DNA from: a virus
Length of the DNA stretch: 28,245 bases
UHGV virus genome: UHGV-0133447
Strand: one strand, 5' to 3'
Shown piece by piece: positions 6,494-28,154 of this stretch (positions within the stretch are counted from its first letter, which is position 1; every line of letters begins with the position of its first letter). The notes beneath the pieces are model-generated. The model ran no database searches. It worked only from the letters and a program-made list of their open reading frames with translations, and had not been told where the DNA came from. Position numbers and translations under genes: made by a program.

Positions 6494-6496
6494 GGC

Positions 6497-6522
6497 CAAA
6501 GAAAAAGCCCACCGAAGTGGGC
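6497..6522 (-). terminator. intrinsic terminator (minus strand) with UUCG-type tetraloop
   Basis: Minus-strand reading ggcccac-ttcg-gtgggc followed by TTTTCTTTGG. Lies downstream of the TerB-like gene. Confidence 0.5.
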
Positions 6523-6896
6523 CTTACAGCTATCATCATTTTTTATTAGGTGTGGTGCCGGGTGCCTCCCGGTAAGTCGCCGCCAGTCCACAGACGACTC
6601 GCAATGCGCAAAAAAACATATCAGACTGGCAATGCCCCTCCGCATAGGGGGATTCACCACACGGATAATTTAGGATGTAGTCATAGGCGGCGTCAATAAC
6701 TGACACTCTGTCAAAGGCATCATTACGATGCCTTTTGCACAGTGCTAATCACTGGATCTAATAAGGGGCCAGAGCAAAGCGATTACCCCGGCTACCAGCA
6801 CGCCATCAGCCAGGATTGACATCATTTTGCTGGTGAAGTCGATAGCAACCACCAGAAACAAAAGCACCCCGGCTGCGGCCCAGCGAAGTTTACCGA

Positions 6897-7322
6897 TCAC
6901 AGGTACTGGTCCAGAGGAAGTTGCAGAGCCTGGGCAATTTTCTTCAGCTGTTTCTCTTCTTCTTCCCCGATGCCGTCGTTATCAGCTACATCAAGACACA
7001 GGCAAAGAACATCGACAGCGTCATCCGTCCCGGCAACGTCAGCCAGTTCGCGCAACGCCTGAGCGTTGGCTGAACGTGGTGATGCTTCATAGCGAGCGCG
7101 AATATTCGAACTCATCTGGGCAATTTCACCAGCAAATGGCGCGAATGCCGGGAGGGCCGAAATAGTCTTCTCCAGCACTGCAATCTCTTTTGCATCGCAG
7201 GTACCATCGGCGTATGCAATCGAGTACGCTCCCCAGACCGTGGCTTCTACGGCATCGCGGTTTTCCATTTTTTTTACTTCAACAACGGCTTTACGGGCTT
7301 TCTTTTTAAAAATACCGAACAT
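6897..7322 (-). CDS. TerB-like domain protein (tellurite-resistance TerB fold), moron candidate
   Basis: Using the ATG for MFGIFKKK...: two acidic motifs (AYADGTCDAKEIAVLEK and VADNDGIGEEEEKQLKKIAQAL) matching the TerB pattern from memory. The track ORF extends to 7403 with an alternative upstream start. Confidence 0.5.
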   Translation of the reverse strand: MFGIFKKKARKAVVEVKKMENRDAVEATVWGAYSIAYADGTCDAKEIAVLEKTISALPAFAPFAGEIAQMSSNIRARYEASPRSANAQALRELADVAGTDDAVDVLCLCLDVADNDGIGEEEEKQLKKIAQALQLPLDQYL

Positions 7323-8505: not shown

Positions 8506-8581
8506 TGGTGCTGGTTGACGGAATCGAACCGCCGACATCCTGCTTACAAGGCAGGCGCTCTACCAGCTGAGCTAAACCAGC
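8506..8581 (-). tRNA. tRNA-Thr (anticodon UGU), phage-encoded
   Basis: Minus-strand 76-nt cloverleaf GCTGGTT-TA-GCTC-AGCTGGTA-GAGC-G-CCTGC-CTTGTAA-GCAGG-ATGTC-GGCGG-TTCGATT-CCGTC-AACCAGC-A-CCA. Acceptor 7 bp, D-loop GG, anticodon loop with U33 and A37, canonical T-loop, encoded CCA. Confidence 0.8.
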
Positions 8582-9621
8582 AAATTACGCATTTCACTGA
8601 CCGTCTGTTCAAATCTCTCGGTTTCCAGTTCGACACCTAGTCCCCTTCGCCCGAGAAGAGCAGCCTGCTTGAGCGTTGAGCCTGATCCAAAAAAGAAATC
8701 AGCTACAACATCACCCGGGCGGCTACTCGCTGTGATTATCTGCTCCAGCATATCCGCAGGCTTTTCACATGGGTGTTTACCTGGATAAAACTGAACAGGC
8801 TTATGAGTCCAGACGTCGGTATATGGCACCGTGACCGATACGCTGAATGGTCGCCGTAAACGGTAATATTCCTGCTGGAGTTCAGAATATTTTCGGCTTA
8901 ACGATTGCCAGGTGCCGACAAGCTGGTGGTGAGGTTTTCCCAGTTCGTTGCGTGAGTGCTTATCCATGGCGATTGTTTGAAACAAAGCCTGCAACTTTAA
9001 ATAATCGGCTTCGTTCGGTAGCTGCCACTGACTAAGGCCAAACCAGTGGGAAACCATATTTTTCTTACCTGTGGCTTCTGCAATCTGAGCCGACGTCACG
9101 CCAAGAGATTCCCGTGCATCACGGAAGTAAGAAATTAAAGGCGTCATGACGTGTTGCTTTAACTCATTACACTTTGCGGCATATCCATCGTCTTTGGGCC
9201 TGTATGGCCCCTGATAATGGTCGGCAAAAATGATACGCTCAGTGGCCGGGAAATAAGCGCGTAAGCTCTCCTTATTGCAGCCGTTCCATCGCCCTGATGG
9301 CTTAGCCCAGATGATATGGTTGAGCAGGTTAAACCGCTCTCTCACCAACAGCTCAATATCCGCTGCCAGGCGGTGCCCACAGAACAGATACATGCTGCCG
9401 GCAGGTTTTAACACTCGCCAGAACTGTGCCAGACAGCTATCCAGCCAACGTAAATAGTCTTCGTCCCCCTTCCATTGGTTATCCCAGCCGTTTGGCTTCA
9501 CCTTAAAATAAGGCGGATCGGTAACAATAAGATCAATGGAGTTATCGGGTAGCGATGGGAGGTATTGCAGGCAATCAGCATTGATTAACTCAATACTGGA
9601 TATTTTTACAGTATTTTTCAT
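8572..9621 (-). CDS. orphan DNA methyltransferase, N6-adenine/N4-cytosine (beta) class
   Basis: 349 aa with TDPPYF catalytic motif near the N-terminus. No adjacent restriction endonuclease. The ORF's last codons overlap the 5' end of the tRNA. Confidence 0.85.
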   Translation of the reverse strand: MKNTVKISSIELINADCLQYLPSLPDNSIDLIVTDPPYFKVKPNGWDNQWKGDEDYLRWLDSCLAQFWRVLKPAGSMYLFCGHRLAADIELLVRERFNLLNHIIWAKPSGRWNGCNKESLRAYFPATERIIFADHYQGPYRPKDDGYAAKCNELKQHVMTPLISYFRDARESLGVTSAQIAEATGKKNMVSHWFGLSQWQLPNEADYLKLQALFQTIAMDKHSRNELGKPHHQLVGTWQSLSRKYSELQQEYYRLRRPFSVSVTVPYTDVWTHKPVQFYPGKHPCEKPADMLEQIITASSRPGDVVADFFFGSGSTLKQAALLGRRGLGVELETERFEQTVSEMRNLLV

Positions 9622-13937: not shown

Positions 13938-14410
13938 TCTGCCTCCAGCACTATTTTCAACTCAAACGGAACATCTCCTCCGCAATAGCAGAGCGGGCCA
14001 AGGTCAGACATGAGGCTCCACAGGGTCATTGACGTATAGCCATTTTCGTCTGTTATCGGGGGCGAAAAGTCTCCGAAGATCGCCGGGTGCTGGATTCGAT
14101 TCTCTTCGTGCTGGCTTCTCAAGTAACTTAGAGCTTCGGCAGTAAGTTTCACTTTTACGATGCTGTTGAGATTGACCGATATTTCTCTGGCCAACAGCGA
14201 AGAGGTGATACTGATACCGCGAGAAACCCCGCGGGTAATCTTGATGGCCCCTTTTCTCTCCAGCGCCTTGAGGTGCGTTGCTGCTGCATTGGGGGACCGG
14301 CACCCCAGCATGCCGGTCAGTTCGTAAGTTGTAGGCGGAAAACCATGTTTACGCTGATATTCGATCAGGAGGTCAAGGACCTCCTGCTGCCTTAAGGTCA
14401 AGGAAGTCAT
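13934..14410 (-). CDS. LexA-type N-terminal DNA-binding domain protein lacking the S24 peptidase domain
   Basis: From ATG 14410: MTSLTLRQQEVLDLLIEYQRKHGFPPTTYELTGMLGCRSPNAAATHLKALERKGAI closely follows the LexA DNA-binding-domain pattern. The ~90-aa C-terminal part has no Ser/Lys peptidase motifs. Start overlaps the C5-MTase stop (ATGA). Confidence 0.6.
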   Translation of the reverse strand: MTSLTLRQQEVLDLLIEYQRKHGFPPTTYELTGMLGCRSPNAAATHLKALERKGAIKITRGVSRGISITSSLLAREISVNLNSIVKVKLTAEALSYLRSQHEENRIQHPAIFGDFSPPITDENGYTSMTLWSLMSDLGPLCYCGGDVPFELKIVLEAE

Positions 14411-16389
14411 GCTGCCTGCTCCTCTCTGTTCACGCACATTTCGGGTAAGTTGGCGCGTACCAGCGCTTCGGCGAACGGCGGCGGGACGGCATTGCCACAG
14501 CGCGCGACCTGCTTATCTTTCGCGTATTTCACGCCGCGGTAATCCTGGTCAATGATGTACCACTCCGGAAAGCCCTGCGCCCGATAGAGCTCGTGCGGCT
14601 GCAGCATGCGCATGCCGATATCAACGATGCGGTAAGTCACTCCGCCGATTTCCACCAGCCCGGTGCATTCCTCTCCGCAGTATTCCTGCAGGAACGACAG
14701 CACCTGCTGCGCTCGCTCTTCGTCATAGTCCTCGACCGCCAGAGTCGTTTTAACCTCCCCTACATGCTGGCCACCGGCAGTGATAGTCGGCATCGGCTCG
14801 TCAGTTCGCTGGCCATCGCGGCAGGTTCCGCGCAGCTTAACCAGATGAGAAGCGACTAATGCATGGTGATCGACAGTCGTTACTGAATGCGCTGGCTCAT
14901 CCAGCCCCACGCCAGCGCCCTGATAATTCCCTCCGTAGTGTTTTGCCAGGAACGCACCAACTACAGCATGTTTCCCGCCACCAGCCACAACGGTGCCCAG
15001 CGGCTTATCCAGTCCTGGCACGCGAGGTGCCTGTCCTGGCCGTTCCCCGTATCCCATTTGAATGAGCGTCGGCACAACCAGCTGCGATTTACCTCCGCCG
15101 CCCGCGGTGATTGTTGCGCTAGGCTCATCCGCCCGGTGTCCGATGCTGGCGCCGAACTGCCGGGCGATAACCGGAGCGACGACACAGGCGCGCGATTCTT
15201 TCAGGATGGTGTGAGCGGGTTTATCGAGCGGGCGTGGTTTAGCCTGGTACTCGCTGCCGCCATTGCCAGCCAGGAACGGCGCCAGCTCTGCTTCAACAAT
15301 ACCCAGAGCGTGACCATTCCCGCCCGGGCGTTTTGCGGTACCGGCCGTCACCGTCGGCAACGGATCGGTGACTTCCTGCCCGGTAGCTCCAGTTCGGAAT
15401 TTTGTCAGATGAGGTACCGCAATTGCGTAGCCGTGGGTTTTCGTAATCGTCTGTAGCGGATCGTCCAGCGCCTGTCCCCGGAAACAGTCGTATTTGCCGC
15501 GTGTCGTTGTGTGATTGCACTTCACGATGAACGGCGAAGCGCTTTCGATAACAAAGCGCTGAATGCCGCGGGCAATCCGTTTTAGCGTATTCTCTGCCAG
15601 TGACTTTTTGCGACCGAAGATGCTCGGCGCGGGGATTGACCAGTCTATGCATTCCGCAGCTGTACGCCACGGCTCAAGCTGGCCCGCCAGCACGGCGGCA
15701 GACTTCGGATCCCCGTGCGTGGCTTCCGGCCAGACTATCAGTTTCCCGTCCCGGCGCATCACCATGAAGAACCGCTTACGGATGGTCGGCGCGCCATAAT
15801 CGCAGGCGCGCAGCTCGCGAAAATCGACGACATAACCCAGCCCGGCAATTAAGCGCTTGGCCTGCTCGCTATCCGGTGAAAACTCCAGAAACTCGCAACA
15901 CTCCACCAGTGCAGGATGATCTGCTGGAATACCGGTGGTAAGCATCCCGACAAATGCATTGAAAGTTTCACCGATGCGTGCCGGATCCGGTCGCATTTCT
16001 GCCGCGAGTAACGGACCCCACGTCTTAAACTCTTCGACGTTTTCCAGCATCATGACTCGCGGGCCAACATCCAGCGCCCAACGAATGACGATCCATGCCA
16101 GCCCTCGAATAGCTTTCTCTACTGGTTTAGCACCTTTCGCTTTAGAAAAGTGACGACAGTCAGGCGAGAACCATGCCAGGCCGACAGGCTTGCTACTGGT
16201 AGCGGCTAATGGGGATACATCAAACACACTTTCGCAATAGTGAAGCGTGTCGGGATGGTTAGTGCGGTGCATAGCAACGGCGTTAACATCGTGGTTAATA
16301 GCGATATCAACACTGCGCCCTATTGCCAGTTCAATACCTGTACTGGCTCCACCGCCGCCAGCGAAATTATCGACAATAATCTCACGCAT
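14407..16389 (-). CDS. DNA (cytosine-5)-methyltransferase with long repeat-containing variable region
   Basis: 660 aa. DNFAGGGG (motif I), SPDCRHFS (catalytic Cys), MMLENVEEF (ENV), C-terminal QGFP and GNAV motifs. The intervening ~250 aa carries about six related modules of the form P-x-x-T-I/V-T-A-G-G. GAGGGGG RBS. Confidence 0.8.
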   Translation of the reverse strand: MREIIVDNFAGGGGASTGIELAIGRSVDIAINHDVNAVAMHRTNHPDTLHYCESVFDVSPLAATSSKPVGLAWFSPDCRHFSKAKGAKPVEKAIRGLAWIVIRWALDVGPRVMMLENVEEFKTWGPLLAAEMRPDPARIGETFNAFVGMLTTGIPADHPALVECCEFLEFSPDSEQAKRLIAGLGYVVDFRELRACDYGAPTIRKRFFMVMRRDGKLIVWPEATHGDPKSAAVLAGQLEPWRTAAECIDWSIPAPSIFGRKKSLAENTLKRIARGIQRFVIESASPFIVKCNHTTTRGKYDCFRGQALDDPLQTITKTHGYAIAVPHLTKFRTGATGQEVTDPLPTVTAGTAKRPGGNGHALGIVEAELAPFLAGNGGSEYQAKPRPLDKPAHTILKESRACVVAPVIARQFGASIGHRADEPSATITAGGGGKSQLVVPTLIQMGYGERPGQAPRVPGLDKPLGTVVAGGGKHAVVGAFLAKHYGGNYQGAGVGLDEPAHSVTTVDHHALVASHLVKLRGTCRDGQRTDEPMPTITAGGQHVGEVKTTLAVEDYDEERAQQVLSFLQEYCGEECTGLVEIGGVTYRIVDIGMRMLQPHELYRAQGFPEWYIIDQDYRGVKYAKDKQVARCGNAVPPPFAEALVRANLPEMCVNREEQAA

Positions 16390-17335
16390 GAGCGGTCCCC
16401 CTCATGCTGCCGACCAGCCCACCAGCAACGGTGATGATTTCGCTGGTGGGCACGCGCTCCAGCCACAACTGGTTAATGTGGGCCTTCAGCTTGTTCTGCT
16501 GGGAGAACTCCAGATCCTCTGCGCCTTGTACCTGTCCAAAGACGAGTCCAACTTCCAGTGGCCAGATCCGGGATTCAGGCTCAGCCAATGATGCAACAGC
16601 ATCGGGGATGATCACTTCAGGAGACTGAACTGGCGAAACTGGTGACAGGAATTTTCCTGCAGCAAACTCAGCCAGCGCCATACTTGCGCGCCCTTTTGCT
16701 TCCAGCTCAACGCGATCGATATAGCTAAAATGTTCACCGCGCCAGGTCTTATCAAATACCGCAATGGCCCCGGCAAAGAATGCGCTGGTGGGCTTCTGCT
16801 TTTCGTCGGCCGGCACAAACCACGTTGGGAGATCGAATCCAATACGACCACGAATAAACATGATGTGATCGGCATATTCCGGCCACCATGTTTCACTTGT
16901 TGCTGACTTCACGAGGTAAATGTAACGACCACCCTTTTCACGCTGCTCGGCGGTATAGTTCATAATATGAGTCATGCCAGTGATGGCTTGTTTTTCATGG
17001 TACTGCGAACGGCTATACGGCGGATTAGCAAAGGCCGCTCCTCCGAGTTCTACCAAACGACCAGACCAGTCCTGCGTCAGCGCATTATCTTCAGCGGTAT
17101 ACCATGCCGGACATTTTGTATTGCTGTCGTCTGCAAACAGGTCCAGTACCAGCGGGCCAAACATAGCGTTAACGCCCCAGAACAGCAGATCAGGGGTACG
17201 CCATTGATCCCCGACTTCTTTTAAATAATGCGCACTACGCTGGCGCTGTTCCTCAAGTGCCAGGCAATAAGGGCTGACGGTTTTTGTTAAAGTTTGCTCT
17301 TCTGCGGTCATAGCTTCTTGTACTTCCTGACTCAT
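16382..17335 (-). CDS. phage Dam-like N6-adenine DNA methyltransferase with C-terminal extension
   Basis: 317 aa. WRTPD...FANPPYS motif characteristic of the phage N6-adenine methyltransferase family (memory). AGGGGA RBS. Confidence 0.8.
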   Translation of the reverse strand: MSQEVQEAMTAEEQTLTKTVSPYCLALEEQRQRSAHYLKEVGDQWRTPDLLFWGVNAMFGPLVLDLFADDSNTKCPAWYTAEDNALTQDWSGRLVELGGAAFANPPYSRSQYHEKQAITGMTHIMNYTAEQREKGGRYIYLVKSATSETWWPEYADHIMFIRGRIGFDLPTWFVPADEKQKPTSAFFAGAIAVFDKTWRGEHFSYIDRVELEAKGRASMALAEFAAGKFLSPVSPVQSPEVIIPDAVASLAEPESRIWPLEVGLVFGQVQGAEDLEFSQQNKLKAHINQLWLERVPTSEIITVAGGLVGSMRGTAHA

Positions 17336-19773: not shown

Positions 19774-19817
19774 GGCTTACCTCCTACTTCTGTGGTTAAC
19801 GCTGCTAAAACCAAATG

Positions 19818-20018
19818 TTATTGTTTGGAATAGATATCTGGTCGGAGATCAAACTTGGTGATCGCACCGGATGTGCTTTTTTCCAGTTTTTTTGCCAGAT
19901 CAAATCCAGCTTTTTTGTAGCCGTTAAAAACTAAACGCAGATAACCGGGTGTAGAGCCAACGTTTGCAGCTAAATTGCTCTGTTGCTCTTTAGTTAATGA
20001 ATCCCAGAACTCTTTCAT
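19818..20018 (-). CDS. cro: Cro-like repressor
   Basis: 66 aa from the ATG at 20018, preceded by AGGAGG. Divergent from cI across an operator-rich spacer. Small HTH-like protein. Confidence 0.7.
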   Translation of the reverse strand: MKEFWDSLTKEQQSNLAANVGSTPGYLRLVFNGYKKAGFDLAKKLEKSTSGAITKFDLRPDIYSKQ

Positions 20019-20029
20019 ATATGTACCTC

Positions 20030-20105
20030 CTGTGTACATATTACACGAAAGAAATGAACCTTCAAGGTACTTGTACCTTGAAGGTACACACGGTTTAATT
20101 TCAAT
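20030..20105. promoter_or_regulatory. divergent cI/cro promoter-operator region
   Basis: Palindromic operators gtaccttgaaggtac (20074-20088) and accttcaaggtac (20058-20070). Minus-strand TTGAAG-16-TAATAT promoter candidate toward cro. Plus-strand TTTAAT -10 candidate immediately before the cI ATG. Confidence 0.5.
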
Positions 20106-20780
20106 ATGAAAACAATCCAGGAAATCAGGCGGTTAAACGCCAGAAAATTGCGTGATGGTGTTGGCGGTAATATTTACTTCGCCAATATGATTGATCGCGA
20201 GCCTACTCAAACCAGCCGGTTCATGGGAGATGGCGCCACTAAAAACATCGGCGATGCAATGGCAAGGCACATTGAAAAGTGTTTTGACTTACCTACTGGG
20301 TGGTTAGATCAGGAACATCAAACCACTAATGTTGCTAAAACGCCCGATGTCTCTGATACAAATAGAAATATCACCATGGTTCCGGTTATATCCTGGGTAC
20401 AAGCAGGAGCATGGACCGAAGTTGGCTATGCTGAGGTTGATTTGAATAGCACTGAAAACTATCCATGCCCTGTGCCTTGTGGGCCGATGACTTATATTCT
20501 TCGTGTTATTGGCGACTCAATGATCGACGAATATAGGCCCGGTGATATGATTTTTGTTGATCCCGAAGTTCCAGCAGTGCATGGAGATGATGTGATCGCC
20601 TTAATGCACGCTTCTGGTGAGACTACATTTAAACGGTTGATTGAAGATGCAGGACAACGCTATCTAAAAGCACTTAACTCAAATTGGCCAGAACCTTACA
20701 TCAAAATCAATGGTAATTGCTCTATCATTGGCACCGTAATTTTTTCCGGTAAACCAAGACGATACCGAACGAAAACATAA
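20106..20780 (+). CDS. cI: CI-like phage repressor (HTH plus S24 LexA-type peptidase domain)
   Basis: 224 aa. C-terminal VIGDSMIDEYRPGDMIFVD...FKRL carries the Ser/Lys S24 signature. N-terminal HTH region. Divergent from cro. Confidence 0.9.
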   Translation: MKTIQEIRRLNARKLRDGVGGNIYFANMIDREPTQTSRFMGDGATKNIGDAMARHIEKCFDLPTGWLDQEHQTTNVAKTPDVSDTNRNITMVPVISWVQAGAWTEVGYAEVDLNSTENYPCPVPCGPMTYILRVIGDSMIDEYRPGDMIFVDPEVPAVHGDDVIALMHASGETTFKRLIEDAGQRYLKALNSNWPEPYIKINGNCSIIGTVIFSGKPRRYRTKT

Positions 20781-20794
20781 CAAAGACTATTAAA

Positions 20795-20815
20795 CCTGCT
20801 TCGGCGGGTTTTTTT
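20795..20815 (+). terminator. intrinsic terminator after cI
   Basis: cctgc-ttcg-gcggg (5-bp stem with one G-U pair, UUCG loop) followed by seven T. Confidence 0.55.
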
Positions 20816-20819
20816 ACAC

Positions 20820-20848
20820 TTGACAATGTACCTCAACGGTACATAATG
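20820..20848 (+). promoter_or_regulatory. strong sigma70-like promoter with embedded operator (PL analogue driving the early-left operon)
   Basis: TTGACA (20820-20825), 16/17-nt spacer, CATAAT/ATAATG (20842-20848). The spacer contains gtacctcaacggtac, the same GTACC-N5-GGTAC operator type as in the cI/cro region. Confidence 0.55.
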
Positions 20849-20953
20849 TACCTAAAAGAAACAGCGAACAGGCAGGACGCCCACGAAGTAGCCGCCCGGG
20901 GCATATGAAGTCCGGGATGATTCGCTGACAGATAAACCAAATAGGAACAGATC

Positions 20954-21187
20954 ATGGCAAGCAAAGGCATTGAAAACCTTATCAAGGACGCATTGGCAAA
21001 CGGCTGTCATGTAGTCCGTAAAGCGCATCGCTTCGAGGTAAGCAAGAAAGGCCAAAAATCAATCACTCTTATTATTTGTGAAGATGGCACAGCTTACCGG
21101 GGAGATATTGACCTAACGATCGCCATAGCCATTCGCACTCAAAAAGAAATGCGCAGAATCCTCGGCCTGCCAGCCAAGGCAAGTTAA
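20954..21187 (+). CDS. hypothetical early protein (77 aa)
   Basis: First ORF after the PL-like promoter; AGGA about 8 nt upstream. No family recognised. Confidence 0.45.
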   Translation: MASKGIENLIKDALANGCHVVRKAHRFEVSKKGQKSITLIICEDGTAYRGDIDLTIAIAIRTQKEMRRILGLPAKAS

Positions 21188-21900
21188 TTACCACAGGTGT
21201 CTTCGGGAGGGGTTGCGGAGCTGGATTGACCACCAGCAACAGAAACTCACCCGACATACAGCAGCCGTTTAGCCCACGGCGTCGGGGGTCCAGTAGACCT
21301 GGATTAATACTGTAGGGGTTGTGCCGGTTGGTCGCCGGCGCCCCGCCCGAAGATTCCTGATCGAACATGGCGAAAGCCGACAGCGTTGAAGGCGATTTTC
21401 TCGGTTTGCGCGCTAAACAATAGCGGGGGTGAAATCGGGGCGGAGAAGCAGAATCCGCGATGTCGGGACTTGATACTTCCGGCCAGACCAACAAGCCGAA
21501 TGATCGCGTAACGGTCCTTTGCATCTGCCCCGGCGAGGTGGCGCCGCCGGACCGGGGCAGATGAATCGTACACAACATGAAAGCGCATTCCATCTTCATC
21601 CGTCGTGGGGACTGGTTTGTAACTGAAGGAGTGCGCTTCCAGTTGTGAACGGCAATATTCACGACCGTTGTATGGCACATGCAGCGTTAGCAGCCCGGAT
21701 GGTTCCCTTGAAGTTCCATGCGCTATCCGGACAACTGGAATGTGCAAGCCAAGTGTTTCAGGCACGACGTGCGCCCCACCAGCGCGGCGAAAAGGTGTGA
21801 CCCCCGGGAAGAGTCCGGGACACAACAGGAAAGAGTACTGAAGATGCCAGGAAACGCCCTACCGCCAGGCAGATAGACGGGTTATCCCGCAAGGGGTGGC

Positions 21901-22043
21901 GGCAGTGCTCTTACCGTTGTGGTGTAGCTCAAATGGATAGAGCGCCCCTTATGTGGGGAGTTGAGCACTAACCAATGTTCGCAACACAGGTTATCTCATG
22001 CGGCCGGCCGGACGTTATGCGGGTTCAAATCCCGTCACCACAG
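21901..22043 (+). ncRNA. candidate tRNA-like structured element, copy B1
   Basis: Leader ggcagtgctcttaccgttgtggt. TGTGGTG (21918-21924) pairs with CACCACA (22036-22042). D-arm-like GCTC-AAATGGATA-GAGC. T-arm-like GCGGG-TTCAAAT-CCCGT (22019-22035). About 60 extra nt between the anticodon-like region and the T-arm. No encoded CCA. Confidence 0.3.
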
Positions 22044-22080
22044 CGCACAACGATGAGGGCATTGACGAGCAAGGCACAGA

Positions 22081-22099
22081 GTCTGGTTCGATTCCAGAC
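22081..22099 (+). other. tRNA T-arm-like hairpin (loop TTCGATT)
   Basis: gtctgg-ttcgatt-ccagac, a 6-bp stem with a loop identical to the tRNA-Thr T-loop at 8506-8581. Confidence 0.4.
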
Positions 22100-22138
22100 G
22101 CCAGGATAGCTCTATATCTGGTGATGGGCAGGGAAAAG

Positions 22139-22155
22139 GTCCGTTCGATTCGGAC
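22139..22155 (+). other. tRNA T-arm-like hairpin (loop TTCGATT)
   Basis: gtccg-ttcgatt-cggac, a 5-bp stem with the same loop sequence. Confidence 0.4.
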
Positions 22156-22158
22156 ACC

Positions 22159-22290
22159 GGCAGTGCTCTCTTCGTTGTGGTAATTGCGGCTATGCGCACG
22201 TGACGAGCCAACCCGTTCATGGAATGCGTTTCCGGGCAGTGTACGTCGCCGGTTATGGCTTAACCCGGCAGGTGGAGGCACCACCGCCAC
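22159..22290 (+). ncRNA. candidate structured element, copy B2
   Basis: Leader ggcagtgctctcttcgttgtggt matches the 21901 leader at 20 of 23 positions. gttgtgg (22173-22179) can pair with ccacaac (22284-22290). Internal cgtcgccgg motif. Confidence 0.25.
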
Positions 22291-22529
22291 AACCTAGTTA
22301 ACTGTGCTGTGTGTAGTCTTGGCGGTTATCCAGTTTTCCACTATCCAAAGGAGGAAGAGGATAACGTTCTGATGGATAACCGCCCTTTTTACACAATACA
22401 AAAGAGCATCACCGGGCGACGGGCTCATTACCCAATCCACCCGGGCGGCGTCCTAACCGCAGGTGCTCTTCTGTGTTGTGTACGGAGAAATTCCCGGCGG
22501 TGGCAGCCGCCTTTCGAGAGGGTAAAACC

Positions 22530-22901
22530 ATGAGTAATGATCGCATGACAGTAGTGCCCGATTTCCTGGGTGAACTGGACGCCGGCGTATTCATGAACAA
22601 GATTGCGGCGGCTCTTAATACCACCGCGCTCGGCGTTCTGAACAACGGCAACAAAGGCAAGGTTGTCCTCACCTTTGATTTTGAGCGTATGGGCAACTCT
22701 GTTGAAGAGAAGCGCGTCAAGATTAAGCACAAGCTGAACTACAGCACCCCAACTCCCCGCGGCAAAGCGTCGGAGGAGGACACCACCGAAACACCAATGT
22801 GGGTTAACAAAGGTGGCAAGCTCACAATCCTGCAGGAGGATCAGGGGCAACTCTTCGGTATCACCGGCGCGGTGGACGGAAAGCTTAAAGCGGCTCAGTG
22901 A
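22530..22901 (+). CDS. conserved phage early-region protein (possibly YfdP-like)
   Basis: 123 aa from ATG 22530 (GAGAGGG upstream); the track ORF starts earlier at 22473. Precedes the DUF2303-like and HD-domain genes, as in the CPS-53 yfdPQR block (memory, uncertain). Confidence 0.5.
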   Translation: MSNDRMTVVPDFLGELDAGVFMNKIAAALNTTALGVLNNGNKGKVVLTFDFERMGNSVEEKRVKIKHKLNYSTPTPRGKASEEDTTETPMWVNKGGKLTILQEDQGQLFGITGAVDGKLKAAQ

Positions 22902-24445: not shown

Positions 24446-24645
24446 TGGCACATGTGAAAGTGAAAGAATTGGTTGCTGCAGCATACGCTGCAGCACCTGA
24501 CCTACCACCAGCAGCAGCACAATTAATGCAAGACATAGCGTCAAGGCTGGATGTGACCTTTGTCGCCCTTACAGAGGCAATGGACCAGAACACCGCTATG
24601 GCCGCGATGATAGCGAACCTGAGCGAGGAAAACAGAAATGGCTAA
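24445..24645 (+). CDS. hypothetical small protein (66 aa)
   Basis: Start overlaps the upstream stop (TAATG) and its own end overlaps the ParB-like start by 8 nt, so it is translationally coupled on both sides. Confidence 0.45.
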   Translation: MAHVKVKELVAAAYAAAPDLPPAAAQLMQDIASRLDVTFVALTEAMDQNTAMAAMIANLSEENRNG

Positions 24646-25426
24646 AAACTCGATCGATGCTTATGGCGCCAGCGGCAAGACAAACGTTCTGATGTTCGAG
24701 CCGAAAAATCTGCATATTGTCACTGACAAGGCTCACCCGCTTTACGATGAGCGTATTCACTTACCTCTCAGTGAGGCAATGGTGCTGAACATCATGGATC
24801 AAGGTGTTCTGGAGCCGATTATTGTGTGGAAAGACCCGGAAACGGGGCTGTCCTGTGTGGTCGATGGCCGTCAGCGTGTCCGCCATACCCTGGAAGCTAA
24901 CAGGCGTCTGGCAAAAGAGGGAAAAACCCCACTGCTGGTTCCGGCTGTCACTAAACGCGGTTCTGCTGTTCGTATGGCGCAGGCAATGGTCAGCGCAAAC
25001 GAAATCCGCCAGGCCGATACACCGCTGGGCCGAGCCAAAAAGATGGCTGATGCACTGGAGCGCGGGCATGACGAGGAAGACCTCGCGCTGATGTTCGGCG
25101 TCAGCGTCCCCACTGTACGCGCTACGCTATCCCTTCTGGATGCCACTCAGGCAGTCAAAGACGCGGTAGAGTCCGGCACAGTAACAGTTACCCAGGCACG
25201 TCAACTGGCATCACTAAAACCCGAAGAACAGCGGGAAAAGGTAGCCGAAATCGAAGCGGCGACCGCTGGCACTACTGGTCATGAAAAAGCGCGTCGTCAG
25301 CGCCAGGTTCTCGGCGATAAGAAACCGCGCCTTAAAACTCGCAAAGAAATCACTAAAGCCCTCGAAGCTGCCAGCGGTGAATACGCTGATGCTCTCCGCT
25401 GGGTACTTGGGGAGGTAACATTATGA
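24638..25426 (+). CDS. ParB-like nuclease-domain protein with HTH
   Basis: 262 aa. N-terminal LEPIIVWKDPETGLSCVVDGRQRV matches the ParB/Srx GxxR core. Central EEDLALMFGVSVPTVRATLSLL is HTH-like. GAGGAA RBS. Confidence 0.7.
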   Translation: MAKNSIDAYGASGKTNVLMFEPKNLHIVTDKAHPLYDERIHLPLSEAMVLNIMDQGVLEPIIVWKDPETGLSCVVDGRQRVRHTLEANRRLAKEGKTPLLVPAVTKRGSAVRMAQAMVSANEIRQADTPLGRAKKMADALERGHDEEDLALMFGVSVPTVRATLSLLDATQAVKDAVESGTVTVTQARQLASLKPEEQREKVAEIEAATAGTTGHEKARRQRQVLGDKKPRLKTRKEITKALEAASGEYADALRWVLGEVTL

Positions 25427-26499
25427 GTAAAGTAGGAGATCATTTCTTTGAGTTTCCTGCATCACGTGGAACTCAGGGCGTTTCAATCGTCCTGATGCTG
25501 AGTGTTCCTGCACGGACCCTTACGCGAGTTCTCGCCAGCGATAATTACGGGGACACTCTTGAACGCTCGCAGCGAGAACTGAACCCAGCCAGGGCGAAAA
25601 AGTTTTATCAGTATCTTGTTGAAGCATACGAAAACAAAGAGCCATTTATCATTCCACCGCTGGTAGGTAACTGCGATTCGTATGTTGAATTCGAAGAGTT
25701 CGGAAACACTAATGTCGGGGTGGCCCGATTCCCAATGGATGCAGAGATTAAATTGTTTGATGGTCAGCATCGCGCAGCAGGTATTGCGGAATATTGTCGC
25801 ACCATTGATGAACCGATCCATGTCCCGATGATGCTTACTCTCCAGTTGCCACTGAAAACGCGGCAGCAGTTTTTCTCGGACATTAACAACAATGTTTCGA
25901 AGCCATCTGCGGCAATCAACATGGCCTATAACGGGCGCGATAAGAACGCGCAGGTGATGGTCAGCTTTATCAGTTCACACGACGTCTTTTCTGAAGTCAC
26001 CGATTTTGAGCATAACGTCGTTCCCGCGAAAAACGATAAGTGGGTGAGCTTCAAGGCCCTTAGTGATGCCACAGCAAAATTTTCAGGTTCCTGCTCGCAG
26101 GATGATCTTGAAGGATTATGGAATGCGTGGCTTATGCTGACAGGTTTAGATGATATTCGCCGCGGTACGAATCAAGCCGAATATAAACGCGAGTATATCC
26201 AGTTCCATGCCGTGATGATTAATGCCTTCGGTTACGCAGTGCAGCGGCTAAGCGAAGGCCGGGGAGTTCGTGGGGTCACGCTGATGATTGAGGATCTGGT
26301 AATGAATACCGGCATTGCCGATCGTGAAGATTTCTTTCTTATTTCATCATGGGTCGGAATTTGCGCCAGCTGTGAGAAAGCTAGGCCAACGGTCATTGCG
26401 AATGTATCCGCTCAAAAGGCTGCAGCATCACGCCTGATGGATGCCATCGTGAATAAAAGCTTGTCTGTTAGTCGCGGTAAGGAGGCCAGCCATGACTGA
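25423..26499 (+). CDS. DGQHR-domain protein (DndB-like)
   Basis: 358 aa with the literal motif LFDGQHRAAGIAE. Size similar to DndB-family proteins. Start overlaps the ParB-like stop by 4 nt. Confidence 0.7.
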   Translation: MSKVGDHFFEFPASRGTQGVSIVLMLSVPARTLTRVLASDNYGDTLERSQRELNPARAKKFYQYLVEAYENKEPFIIPPLVGNCDSYVEFEEFGNTNVGVARFPMDAEIKLFDGQHRAAGIAEYCRTIDEPIHVPMMLTLQLPLKTRQQFFSDINNNVSKPSAAINMAYNGRDKNAQVMVSFISSHDVFSEVTDFEHNVVPAKNDKWVSFKALSDATAKFSGSCSQDDLEGLWNAWLMLTGLDDIRRGTNQAEYKREYIQFHAVMINAFGYAVQRLSEGRGVRGVTLMIEDLVMNTGIADREDFFLISSWVGICASCEKARPTVIANVSAQKAAASRLMDAIVNKSLSVSRGKEASHD

Positions 26500-27073
26500 G
26501 GCTGAATTAGCGCTTGAACGAGCAAAAAAGCTGGCGTTCTTAATGACAGAGCGTTTCAGTATGAACCCCATTAGCGCCAAACTGCTTAATGAAGCATGGC
26601 GTCTTGCATTCCCTGACGAAGTTGCAGTGGCCAGGCGCATGAGGGCGCTGGTAGAGGCGCTGGAGAAGGCGCAGACCAAAAACGCACTCGTTGCCGGCGG
26701 CATTGAGGCTACAGCAAAGCTACATGAGCGCATCGCCGAGCTGGAAGAAGCAGAGCAAAAACTCTGTGCCGCTAACGTGACGCTTGATGCTCGCGCGGAA
26801 TTGGCTGAGCGCCGGTTGGCAGAGATGGAGTCCCGTACCGTCACCATTGAGCCATTCCGCTCGTTTGTCACTGATGCCGACTTAGCAGCGCTCCACCGCT
26901 TCGCCGAATGCTGTGATGACCCTGAATCTGGCGGTCACGATTTGGAACAAGAGCAGGTAAGGCGGCTTGAGGCAATCGGAGCATTGCAGCGTTCGGGGCG
27001 AATTAGCTACATCACGAGCTTTGGTGATGTCCTGATTTCGATTACCGCTGGCATCAAGTGGGAGGCTAAGTGA
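26492..27073 (+). CDS. hypothetical coiled-coil protein
   Basis: 193 aa. Start overlaps the DGQHR stop by 8 nt. Ala/Glu/Leu-rich heptad-like central region. Confidence 0.45.
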   Translation: MTEAELALERAKKLAFLMTERFSMNPISAKLLNEAWRLAFPDEVAVARRMRALVEALEKAQTKNALVAGGIEATAKLHERIAELEEAEQKLCAANVTLDARAELAERRLAEMESRTVTIEPFRSFVTDADLAALHRFAECCDDPESGGHDLEQEQVRRLEAIGALQRSGRISYITSFGDVLISITAGIKWEAK

Positions 27074-27249
27074 TGGCAGAACGCTGGAAAATTTATCTCA
27101 CTATCGCATTCATCGCCCTTGGCGCTACACCGATAAGCATGGTAGCTGCAAAGATTTATGTACCCTCATGGGCGCTTATTTGCGGGCACTGTGGCGCGAT
27201 AATAGCCGGATTTATTTGTGCAGAATTAGGAAGGGGAGCCGACCAATGA
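27073..27249 (+). CDS. small hydrophobic protein (58 aa)
   Basis: ATG overlaps the upstream stop (TGATG) and its stop overlaps the next ATG (ATGA). Two hydrophobic segments and a CGHCG motif. Below the ORF-track size cutoff, translated by hand. Confidence 0.35.
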   Translation: MAERWKIYLTIAFIALGATPISMVAAKIYVPSWALICGHCGAIIAGFICAELGRGADQ

Positions 27250-28154
27250 CCAGCAAAATATCCATAACCGACGAGCGACTTGCATCAATCCAGGCGACAA
27301 CAGTCGGGGTAAAACAGCGCGGGGCAATGCCGCGTGGTTTTTCAAAGTATCTTGTTGAAAACCTGGCCGCAATACTGGCAGAGCTACAGGAACGTCGCAA
27401 TGCCGCAAAAGGTCTTGACCTGGCGGGCTGGCAATTCAAATCAGTAAACGGTGACTGGTTGGGCCTAATTGACGAACACGGAAAGAATCAGGCCTTTCGT
27501 GAGGGTTGCGAAGTTCGCGAGGTTTTCGCTATGGCCGATGGCGTCAATGAACGCGACCAGGTACGCCGCGAGCACGCCGAGTGGTCACAGGCTACATTCG
27601 GCAATGTTGGTCCGGTTGGCCCATTGAAGCACCTGAGCAAAGAAGCGCTGGAAGCTGCTGCCGAGCCTGGCGACCTGTCGGAGTTTGCTGATATGCAGTT
27701 CCTGCTTTGGGACGCCCAGCGCCGGGCTGGTATCACTGATGATCAGATTACCCAGGCGATGATCGAGAAACTGGCGGTGAACAAACAGCGCGAATGGCCT
27801 GAGCCGAAAGACGGTGAGCCACGGTTGCACATTAAAGATCAGCCATCGGCGGTAGGGCCAGTAACAGACGCTATGGCTTACGCATTCCATCATGCGCTAA
27901 CCGATGGTCCCCTGGGTGATGACGATGTGGAGGATATTAAGATCGGATTGAGAGCAGCTTTCGCTAATGTAACCACCTATCAGCCATTACCAGTAGTGCT
28001 GAAAGAGCATCAAATCCGCGAACTAGTCAATAAACTGCGTGATATAGCTATTGAATATCACGGTACACAACAATTGCGTGAGCATATTGCTTGTGTTGTC
28101 CGCGCCGCTATGATCGCGGTCGCACAACCAGCGCCAAAAAGCGAAGTGAATTAG
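27246..28154 (+). CDS. DUF550-like (MazG-type dATP/dGTP pyrophosphohydrolase domain) protein
   Basis: About 302 aa from ATG 27246; the track ORF starts upstream at 27168. Central HAEWSQATFGN...LSKEALEAAAEPGDLSEFADMQFLLWDAQRRAGI has MazG-like acidic spacing (memory). Confidence 0.5.
   Translation: MTSKISITDERLASIQATTVGVKQRGAMPRGFSKYLVENLAAILAELQERRNAAKGLDLAGWQFKSVNGDWLGLIDEHGKNQAFREGCEVREVFAMADGVNERDQVRREHAEWSQATFGNVGPVGPLKHLSKEALEAAAEPGDLSEFADMQFLLWDAQRRAGITDDQITQAMIEKLAVNKQREWPEPKDGEPRLHIKDQPSAVGPVTDAMAYAFHHALTDGPLGDDDVEDIKIGLRAAFANVTTYQPLPVVLKEHQIRELVNKLRDIAIEYHGTQQLREHIACVVRAAMIAVAQPAPKSEVN

Follow-up and report, generated by a model that had tools for sequence, protein, structure and literature searches.

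In the 28,245-nucleotide stretch of UHGV virus genome UHGV-0133447 analyzed here (the window, which is phage DNA throughout), positions 21190 to 22529 form a 1.3-kb segment between a 77-codon gene (ORF77) and a yfdP-like gene. This segment is a mosaic of about ten self-contained modules that turn up in varying combinations in Enterobacterales prophages, and the modules keep a plus-strand RNA secondary structure through compensatory and G-U changes. We consider it probable that the segment is the noncoding body of an early-left, pL-type transcript, an array of RNA cassettes that is cut into small RNAs (sRNAs). On the basis of comparisons with Rfam, GenBank, and the literature, the locus is therefore filed as a much expanded, processed polycistronic sRNA locus of the dicBF type. 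Two RNA families in the array, unit C and a long tRNA-like RNA, appear to be undescribed. The only Rfam models matched by the region are tRNA (the tRNA-like element) and, below threshold, DicF (the T module). Our literature searches retrieved no description of the tRNA-like or T-arm modules, although a 2023 catalogue of approximately 10,000 anonymous phage RNA candidates may contain them (PMC10690425).

DicF has so far been treated as a lone sRNA in one cryptic-prophage operon. The dicF stretch can now be seen as one small instance of a widespread modular system, carried by lambdoid prophages of Escherichia, Klebsiella, Salmonella, Citrobacter, Yersinia, Edwardsiella, Pantoea, and others, in which exchangeable structured-RNA cassettes are the first thing downstream of a repressor-controlled leftward promoter. 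Strong conservation is seen in two cassettes that resemble tRNAs: unit C has two consensus T-arms, and the tRNA-like RNA has acceptor, D, and T arms and no anticodon. Several records place spurious "hypothetical proteins" on cassette modules. If the RNAs are released and act in trans, they would represent a new layer of host take-over or counter-defense by temperate phages, whereas a role in cis would make them a new kind of leader.

Coding status of the segment

An earlier note, made from the sequence of the window, had described the segment as GC rich, noncoding, and devoid of a credible open reading frame (ORF), and our analyses bear this out. The G+C content is 0.55 to 0.59 over 21150 to 22500, compared with 0.39 to 0.47 over 19800 to 21000. 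The ORFs present, with lengths of 202, 173, and 91 amino acids on the minus strand and 74 amino acids on the plus strand, are overlapping frames, and none matches a Pfam or PHROGs family, unlike the flanking ORF77, yfdP-like, and yfdQ genes, all of which do so. As a test for coding, the sites variable among relatives were counted per codon phase. The counts display no codon periodicity, either for the whole segment (192/175/188; p = 0.65) or for each third of it (overall p range, 0.24 to 0.69), whereas a strong period of three is seen in all four flanking genes (p = 2e-7 to 2e-29), with counts of 51/36/114 for yfdP, 145/109/265 for yfdQ, and 58/35/179 for the repressor gene. Insertions and deletions (indels) among relatives are mostly not multiples of three. 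The presence of the 202- and 173-amino-acid ORFs, together with the "hypothetical proteins" that some GenBank records call over homologous DNA, might be taken to indicate a pseudogenized or unrecognized protein-coding gene. With no family match, no periodic frame, and indels of this kind, we regard such a gene as extremely improbable. The earlier note had proposed looking for an intact gene in related phages and for coding-type conservation; related phages carry the same noncoding modules instead, and the codon-phase counts reveal no coding-type conservation.

Several small ORFs were considered and rejected, namely, an 18-codon ORF at 21368, Shine-Dalgarno-AUG-like sequences in long T modules, and the 74-amino-acid ORF, as they are not conserved as ORFs and lack periodicity. 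The last of these (22309 to 22533, plus strand) spans the T and D modules, overlaps the start of the yfdP-like gene in an ATGA, and has no family match.

Modular organization and distribution of related loci

Loci for comparison came from matches among GenBank phages and from two IMG/VR scans that used sequence patterns of the region. The first scan gave 114 loci, 109 of them with distinct flanking sequence, and a coverage map was prepared on these 109 arrays, all of which contain unit C by selection. BLAST against related phages gives patchy matches with sharp edges, and coverage across the 109 loci steps sharply at the module boundaries. M0 (20861 to 20925) is present in 48 arrays, ORF77 (20954 to 21187) in 6, M1 (21193 to 21359) in 8 to 10, M2 (21363 to 21566) in 13, unit A with M3b (21570 to 21826) in about 23, unit B with the tRNA-like RNA (21827 to 22045) in 7 to 10, M6 with T (22185 to 22380) in about 40, and unit D (22381 to 22490) in 72. 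Exactly 21827 to 22045 is missing from Klebsiella phage Kp4866-6, which otherwise has 99% identity with the window, and the junction lies inside the CACAAC hexamer that opens both unit B and unit C.

The modules are nearly always found between an S24-type repressor gene and the first early-left genes, and most of the 114 IMG/VR loci display the order repressor, cassettes, early-left genes. When other genes are present downstream (for example, one for an RdgC-like protein), the cassettes still follow directly after the S24 repressor gene and promoter. The exception is the SPN9TCW group, in which unit C lies beside a genuine tRNA-Arg, between virion genes. Gene-free gaps of 0.75 to 1.3 kb between the repressor and yfdP are found in IAI39, Stx2a_1447, phiNP, ST64B, and 118970_sal3. 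A noncoding stretch of this length had been considered atypical for a phage operon in the earlier note. The gap is indeed noncoding, but it is normal for phages of this group and no peculiarity of a single one, and parts of it have homologs in the dicF-bearing untranslated part of the Qin dicBF operon. In CPS-53 of E. coli K-12, the DNA upstream of yfdP is unrelated to the array; the array has been lost there, and CPS-53 was rejected as a model. The Pas sRNAs (2026 preprint) were rejected as an identity for the array, as they map to the late region.

Two further observations concern individual relatives. Salmonella phage 118970_sal3 (NC_031940.1 / KU927493.2, a 77-kb record) carries two copies of unit C. 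On the cro-side arm, opposite the cassettes, C4 antisense RNA and IsrK are identified by Rfam at 537 to 725 of locus L003 and 179 to 367 of locus L006 (Stx2a_1447 and ST64B), and these two prophages therefore have structured RNAs on both early arms.

Conservation of RNA secondary structure

Folding is more stable than that of dinucleotide shuffles, with z scores of -4.8 for 21560 to 22500 and -4.0 for 21188 to 21566, and folding energy does not separate the two strands. In the comparative data, the predicted pairs are kept in 93 to 99% of cells for every module. Pairs changed on both sides number 3 in M0, 7 in M2, 12 in M3b, 5 in the tRNA-like RNA, 6 in T, and 8 in unit D. G-U combinations are well above A-C combinations, on the plus strand only. 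This points to a plus-strand RNA, as neither a minus-strand RNA nor duplex DNA would give such an excess.

M1 is a closed domain with a stem formed by 21194 to 21212 and 21341 to 21359 (58 pairs; G-U 54 versus A-C 2), and a homolog lies directly 3' of M0 in ST64B. M2, with a homolog in phiNP, has 11 distinct copies and 56 pairs, 7 of them compensatory (G-U 78 versus A-C 4), and ends in a perfect 12-bp hairpin (21522 to 21563). This hairpin is the perfect 12-bp inverted repeat of the earlier note, which exists but had been placed one base off; its arms are catctgccccgg at 21522 to 21533 and ccggggcagatg at 21552 to 21563. By our own arithmetic, about 0.004 perfect 12-bp repeats at that spacing would be expected by chance in 1.3 kb. 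M3b (21653 to 21819), found in Klebsiella phages and SPN9TCW, ends in a small CCCGG-GAAGAGU-CCGGG hairpin, and its 18 distinct copies, with a mean identity of 76%, give 28 pairs, 12 of them compensatory (G-U 63 versus A-C 3). M6 (22185 to 22305; 40 of the 109 arrays) is the spacer between unit C and the DicF-like sRNA and the positional equivalent of the long DicF precursor; it has 30 pairs, of which 2 are compensatory (G-U 41 versus A-C 0). All of these modules are on the plus strand. Complementarity of the array to other transcripts of the window is limited to 13- to 14-mers at chance level.

Units with CACAAC...GUUGUG closing stems

Units A, B, C, and D have a common closing stem, with CACAAC at the 5' end and GUUGUG at the 3' end, which consists of 8 bp, a 1x1 mismatch, and 10 to 11 bp, with or without a bulged A. 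All four are imperfect duplexes of approximately 20 bp that are homologous to a hairpin in Qin. Both arms of unit A (21571 to 21647, plus strand; fold z = -4.74) align with the Qin hairpin upstream of dicF (CAUAACGCGAAAGCGCAUGG / CCGUGCGCUUCCGGUUGUGG), and by analogy unit A may be an RNase III site. Unit B (21821 to 21921, plus strand) is a long hairpin with an interior of approximately 55 nt, and its five copies display 98% identity. Unit D (22390 to 22482, plus strand; fold z = -5.41) extends from the last U of the U-run of the T module to approximately 48 nt before the start codon of the yfdP-like gene; it is represented by 40 distinct copies, with 33 pairs, 8 of them compensatory, and a G-U count of 165 versus 7 for A-C.

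The edges of the modules coincide with short CACAAC/GTTGTG repeats, and the indel at 21827 to 22045 is flanked by two copies of CACAAC. This raises the possibility that the modules are DNA-level elements, such as recombination linkers, decoy T-arm-like attachment sites, or protein-binding repeats. The excess of G-U confined to the plus strand, in particular in unit D and M2, is however the signature of an RNA. The repeats resemble integron attC sites in that their arms end in AAC...GTT, yet they do not fit the attC core consensus RYYYAAC/GTTRRRY (compared by eye with the window sequence), and no integrase was found in Pfam scans of the 16 larger ORFs of the window. We therefore rejected attC sites, the G-U bias again indicating RNA, and consider DNA-level elements in general highly unlikely. 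Antitermination of the boxA/Nus type was also rejected. The 3' arms read GUGCUCUU, which is boxA-like, but these bases are part of a stem and covary with their partners (one variant reads GUGAUAUU), so that there is no single-stranded boxA.

Unit C, an RNA with two T-arms

Unit C (22046 to 22179, plus strand) is a four-way junction RNA of approximately 135 nt, identified by covariation, with a closing stem of approximately 20 bp. The closing stem is followed by the invariant sequence UUGACGAGCAAGGCAYA, a first T-arm (22082 to 22098), a hairpin of free sequence (22101 to 22121), the invariant sequence UGGGCARGGAAAAG, and a second T-arm (22139 to 22155). The two T-arms are the hairpins with the loop TTCGATT that the earlier note had pointed out. 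Among 32 diverse copies, 98.3% of cells are paired and double changes occur in 13 of the 35 pairs, with none of 500 shuffles reaching any observed value, and sliding the partners by 1 to 3 columns lowers the paired fraction to 35 to 50%. The junction sequences are invariant in all 32 copies. The second T-arm, having served as the search seed, is invariant in the first set, but covariation of this arm is seen among the loci of the second scan (GGUCCG/CGGAC, GGUUCG/CGAAC, GGUCUG/CAGAC, GCUCCG/CGGAG). Both T-loops hold the tRNA consensus residues G53, U54, U55, C56, R57, A58, and C61 in all copies. The sequence GTTCGATTC occurs three times in the window, compared with an expectation of 0.2, the third copy being in a genuine tRNA-Thr.

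No family in Rfam 15 matches unit C, even when it is searched alone. Unit C is present in 15 of 50,697 GenBank phage records, some of which overlay it with hypothetical proteins and none of which annotates it as RNA. Among GTDB species representatives, it was found in Brenneria, Yersinia, Pantoea, Rouxiella, Buttiauxella, Ewingella, Symbiopectobacterium, Izhakiella, and Edwardsiella.

The YrlA-type bacterial Y RNAs, which are approximately 100 to 130 nt in length and in some cases phage borne, also have their ends paired in a long stem, with a consensus T-arm, a variable stem-loop, and a third element of high conservation after it (Chen et al. 2014, PMC4201824). In unit C, however, this third element is a second T-arm, whereas that of YrlA is a D-arm, and the 5' motif GNCGAAN0-1G of YrlA is not matched by the corresponding GACGAGC. 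Unit C, also when searched alone, gives no match to the Rfam Y-RNA models at E values up to 10, and no TROVE (Ro60) match is present among 20 Pfam-scanned ORFs of the window, four of which are frames inside the region. The outlines are alike, but every specific feature tested failed, and identity with a YrlA Y RNA was rejected.

The tRNA-like RNA, and genuine tRNAs among related cassettes

A tRNA-like element such as the earlier note had pointed out is recovered as a long tRNA-like RNA of 126 nt (21918 to 22043, plus strand), which matches the Rfam tRNA model RF00005 with 40 bits (gathering score, 29) and contains a 68-nt insertion. Acceptor, D, and T arms are present, the anticodon arm is replaced by a short hairpin, and the insertion forms two extra hairpins. 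No tRNA was called by ARAGORN at this position. The RNA lacks a 7-nt anticodon loop on a 5-bp stem; the position reads CCCC-UUAUGU-GGGG, and the corresponding loops of relatives are 4 nt in length (UGAA or AGCA). The family comprises three types and 14 distinct sequences, including that of the window, and the homolog in locus L046 scores 45.9 bits with the Rfam tRNA model. The acceptor, D, and T arms covary between the types, with compensatory changes in the acceptor, T, and pseudo-anticodon stems, and the insertion is almost invariant. CCA is encoded in the type 3 relatives only, and not in the window. The type 3 RNAs (L204, L205, and L209, from IMG/VR) have an 8-bp acceptor stem, discriminator A, and CCA, and follow a U-run; these look like free-standing, possibly chargeable RNAs.

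Related arrays also contain genuine tRNAs whose 5' ends abut a GUUGUG arm, namely tRNA-Arg(UCU) in L046 and tRNA-Arg in SPN9TCW. The L046 tRNA (6839 to 6914), which includes CCA, shares its first four bases with the 3' arm of a hairpin of the unit A type. This arrangement fits a processing logic like that of tRNA operons. In phage T4, the species 1 and species 2 RNAs are stable RNAs of unknown role that are cotranscribed in the phage tRNA operon. As is proposed here, such operons give rise to tRNA-shaped or tRNA-adjacent small RNAs from a polycistronic transcript through host tRNA-processing enzymes. The phage type, genomic position, and sequences differ.

The T-arm sequences, a tRNA-like element that ARAGORN rejects, and the genuine tRNAs in related arrays would also be compatible with a decaying cluster of tRNA genes or another relic without present function. 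In such a relic, stems would not be expected to be held by compensatory changes across genera from Yersinia to Edwardsiella, nor would the insertion of the tRNA-like RNA stay nearly invariant while the stems covary or the junction sequences of unit C remain unchanged across diverse copies. We thus find a relic very improbable.

The T module and comparison with dicBF and ST64B

The T module (22306 to 22390, plus strand) is a DicF-like sRNA or a terminator, with the tail GCUGUGUGUAGUC, a hairpin at 22321 to 22385, and a U-run at 22386 to 22390. The T family consists of 29 distinct forms with GCUGUGUGUAGUC-UUGGCGG...CCGCCCUUUUU, and in each case a unit D begins with its 5' arm immediately afterward. 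The DicF of K-12 shares the UUGGCGG...CCGCCCUUUUU hairpin/terminator part, but its 5' tail differs and no unit D follows; a graded series of relatives connects the T module to K-12 dicF. Like dicF, the T module belongs to a prophage operon under repressor control, is preceded by untranslated sequence, and has a hairpin and a U-run at its end. Separately, the long T forms (22340 to 22375 in the window; L105, L019, and L112) have a conserved GGAGG-N8-AUG-UUC in the hairpin, a perfect Shine-Dalgarno/start arrangement, with no conserved ORF attached; the window has ACG in place of the AUG, and in L112 the start is directly followed by a stop codon.

In Qin, DicF is cut from the polycistronic RNA of dicBp. 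A 190-nt DicF species owes its 5' end to RNase III, as does a 72-nt species its 3' end, and RNase E generates the 53-nt DicF, which ends at the intrinsic terminator (PMC10448788, PMC5069750, PMC9438474). Our consensus scan for the dicB promoter gave no plus-strand promoter, and therefore only the length of 190 nt, and not the published "813/814" RNase III site, could be used. Counted back from the 3' end of dicF, 190 nt leads to approximately 2746 to 2751 of locus L122, inside the 3' arm (2736 to 2758) of the conserved hairpin. From these coordinates and our own arithmetic, the 5' end of the RNase III-made 190-nt species would fall in this arm. Qin shares a unit A-like hairpin, the next stretch, which follows unit C in other phages, and dicF itself; 3' of dicF there is further sequence that follows unit C in other phages. 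By analogy, the approximately 220 nt in the window that begin with the 3' arm of unit C and extend as far as the U-run (22390) may be the counterpart of the long DicF precursor.

The likeness to Qin dicBF (ydfABC-dicF-dicB) thus includes an immunity-region operon with a repressor-controlled promoter, a hairpin of the unit A type, flanking sequences, and the UUGGCGG...CCGCCCUUUUU scaffold. In contrast to the one hairpin and dicF of Qin, which cover approximately 570 nt, the window has about ten modules over 1.3 kb. The tRNA-like RNA and unit C are both absent from Qin, and the downstream genes are yfdPQR in the window and dicB in Qin.

In ST64B, the noncoding RNA STnc1310 and two genes downstream of the CI repressor gene rise in conditions linked with prophage induction (PMC7067206, Owen et al. 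2020). Of the modules of the window, the ST64B gap contains M0, M1, T, and D, together with part of M6, but neither unit C nor the tRNA-like element. The expression of STnc1310 would fit expression of this homologous array.

Promoter and leader of the transcript

A pL-like sigma-70 promoter (TTGACA, 16 nt, CATAAT; 11 of 12 consensus matches) is present on the plus strand at 20820 to 20847, downstream of the S24-peptidase repressor gene (20106 to 20780, plus strand, identified by Pfam) and the terminator that follows it. A palindromic operator, ATGTACC-N5-GGTACAT (20826 to 20844), overlaps this promoter, and its half-sites GGTAC/GTACC are found again in a palindrome (20058 to 20085) between the repressor gene and the cro-like gene (19818 to 20039, minus strand). 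Therefore, the promoter is regarded as a repressor-controlled, pL-type promoter. M0, directly 3' of the promoter in 48 of the 109 related arrays, is the 5' leader of the transcript on the plus strand, and 13 pairs are predicted from its 31 distinct copies, 3 of them compensatory.

ORF77 (plus strand; phrog_12911, E = 1e-36) lies between M0 and the RNA cassettes. Its codon-phase counts of 16/10/46 (p = 2e-7) identify it as a genuine small gene, and with its presence in 6 of the 109 related arrays only, it looks like a moron put in between the conserved M0 and the cassettes. The first gene after the array is the yfdP-like gene (22530 to 22901, plus strand; phrog_204, E = 1e-41; codon-phase p = 8e-12), which is followed by yfdQ (DUF2303) and a yfdR-like gene.

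Proposed processing and function of the array

In the processing that we propose, derepression would allow RNA polymerase to transcribe the whole array from 20820 to 20847. RNase III would cut the four CACAAC...GUUGUG stems of units A to D, as in the homologous Qin hairpin, and RNase P with 3' trimming would act at the tRNA-like element. RNase E and the intrinsic terminator at 22386 to 22390 would release the DicF-like sRNA, which is probably Hfq dependent. Transcripts that read through the terminator would be cleaved in unit D, and the yfdP-yfdQ-yfdR mRNA would thereby acquire its 5' end. Once released, unit C, the long tRNA-like RNA, and the DicF-like sRNA may act in trans on the host as immediate-early products. 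On present evidence, the target of the DicF-like sRNA is not ftsZ.

Our tentative suggestion for unit C and the tRNA-like RNA, which we put forward as one possibility, is that they are immediate-early tRNA mimics, cut from the pL transcript, that serve as decoys or sponges for host factors binding the tRNA elbow or T-arm during prophage induction. Candidate partners could be RNase P, TruB/TrmA, the CCA-adding enzyme, Ro-type proteins, and tRNA-targeting defense nucleases.

Owing to the fixed position of the array and its internal terminator, the main alternative is a cis-acting leader, a structured RNA that stays in the pL transcript, with modules that are not trans-acting products. Such a leader might shield the long untranslated stretch from Rho or nucleases, or might modify RNA polymerase for terminator read-through in the manner of HK022 put or rrn. 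The cassettes, chiefly M0 and unit C, are nearly always within a few hundred bases downstream of the repressor-controlled promoter regardless of the genes that come next, an intrinsic terminator is situated inside the array before the first downstream gene, and no N-like gene is evident, all of which would agree with a leader. However, the set and order of the cassettes vary freely among phages, unit C stands beside a tRNA between virion genes in SPN9TCW-type phages, and genuine tRNAs are interspersed in the arrays. The boxA-like GUGCUCUU is base paired and covarying, and the cro-side promoter is not followed by a second copy, such as put has. Twin elements like those of HK022 put were rejected, with no second copy of any module found elsewhere in the window. 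We judge a cis-acting leader, and either of these functions for it, to be unlikely, but less so than the other alternatives considered above.

Several points weigh against an array that is cut into trans-acting sRNAs. The near-obligate position of the array as a pL leader would equally suit a cis-acting role. Transcription and cleavage of the array in this phage are predictions from sequence, and the role proposed for RNase III draws on one mapped homologous hairpin and a gel-estimated length. Units B and M1, and likewise unit A, are too uniform for covariation. From the ST64B data, STnc1310 may belong to the gap region but is tied to no particular module. Furthermore, the T module scores 16.5 bits (E = 2.2) with the Rfam DicF model RF00039, whose threshold is 48. 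Its predicted pairing with the start of ftsZ, in a duplex test that used the E. coli gene, which may not be that of the host, is -27.0 kcal/mol, worse than the shuffled controls (mean, -36.2; z = +2.1), and targeting of ftsZ by the T module was rejected; DicF itself gives -38.5 kcal/mol with the ftsZ start region (z = -1.35). The T module is therefore treated as a DicF-type scaffold with another seed.

Other features of the phage genome

The other minus-strand genes of the window include a cII-like gene, replication and methylase genes, a tRNA-Thr gene, the sRNA gene STnc100, and the gene for the large terminase subunit. STnc100, a prophage sRNA (Rfam RF02076), is present in full length with 100.7 bits at 6494 to 6691 in the late region of the phage. 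The phage-borne tRNA-Thr(UGU) at 8506 to 8581, called by both ARAGORN and Rfam, overlaps with its end the end of an N6/N4 DNA-methylase ORF (8572 to 9621) by approximately 10 bases. C5 and Dam-type methylases are encoded within 14407 to 17335, and the region from 24638 to 28154 encodes a ParB-HTH protein, a DndB-like protein, and a dATP/dGTP pyrophosphohydrolase-like protein. Together, the methylase genes and the latter three genes suggest that the phage invests heavily in DNA modification or counter-defense.

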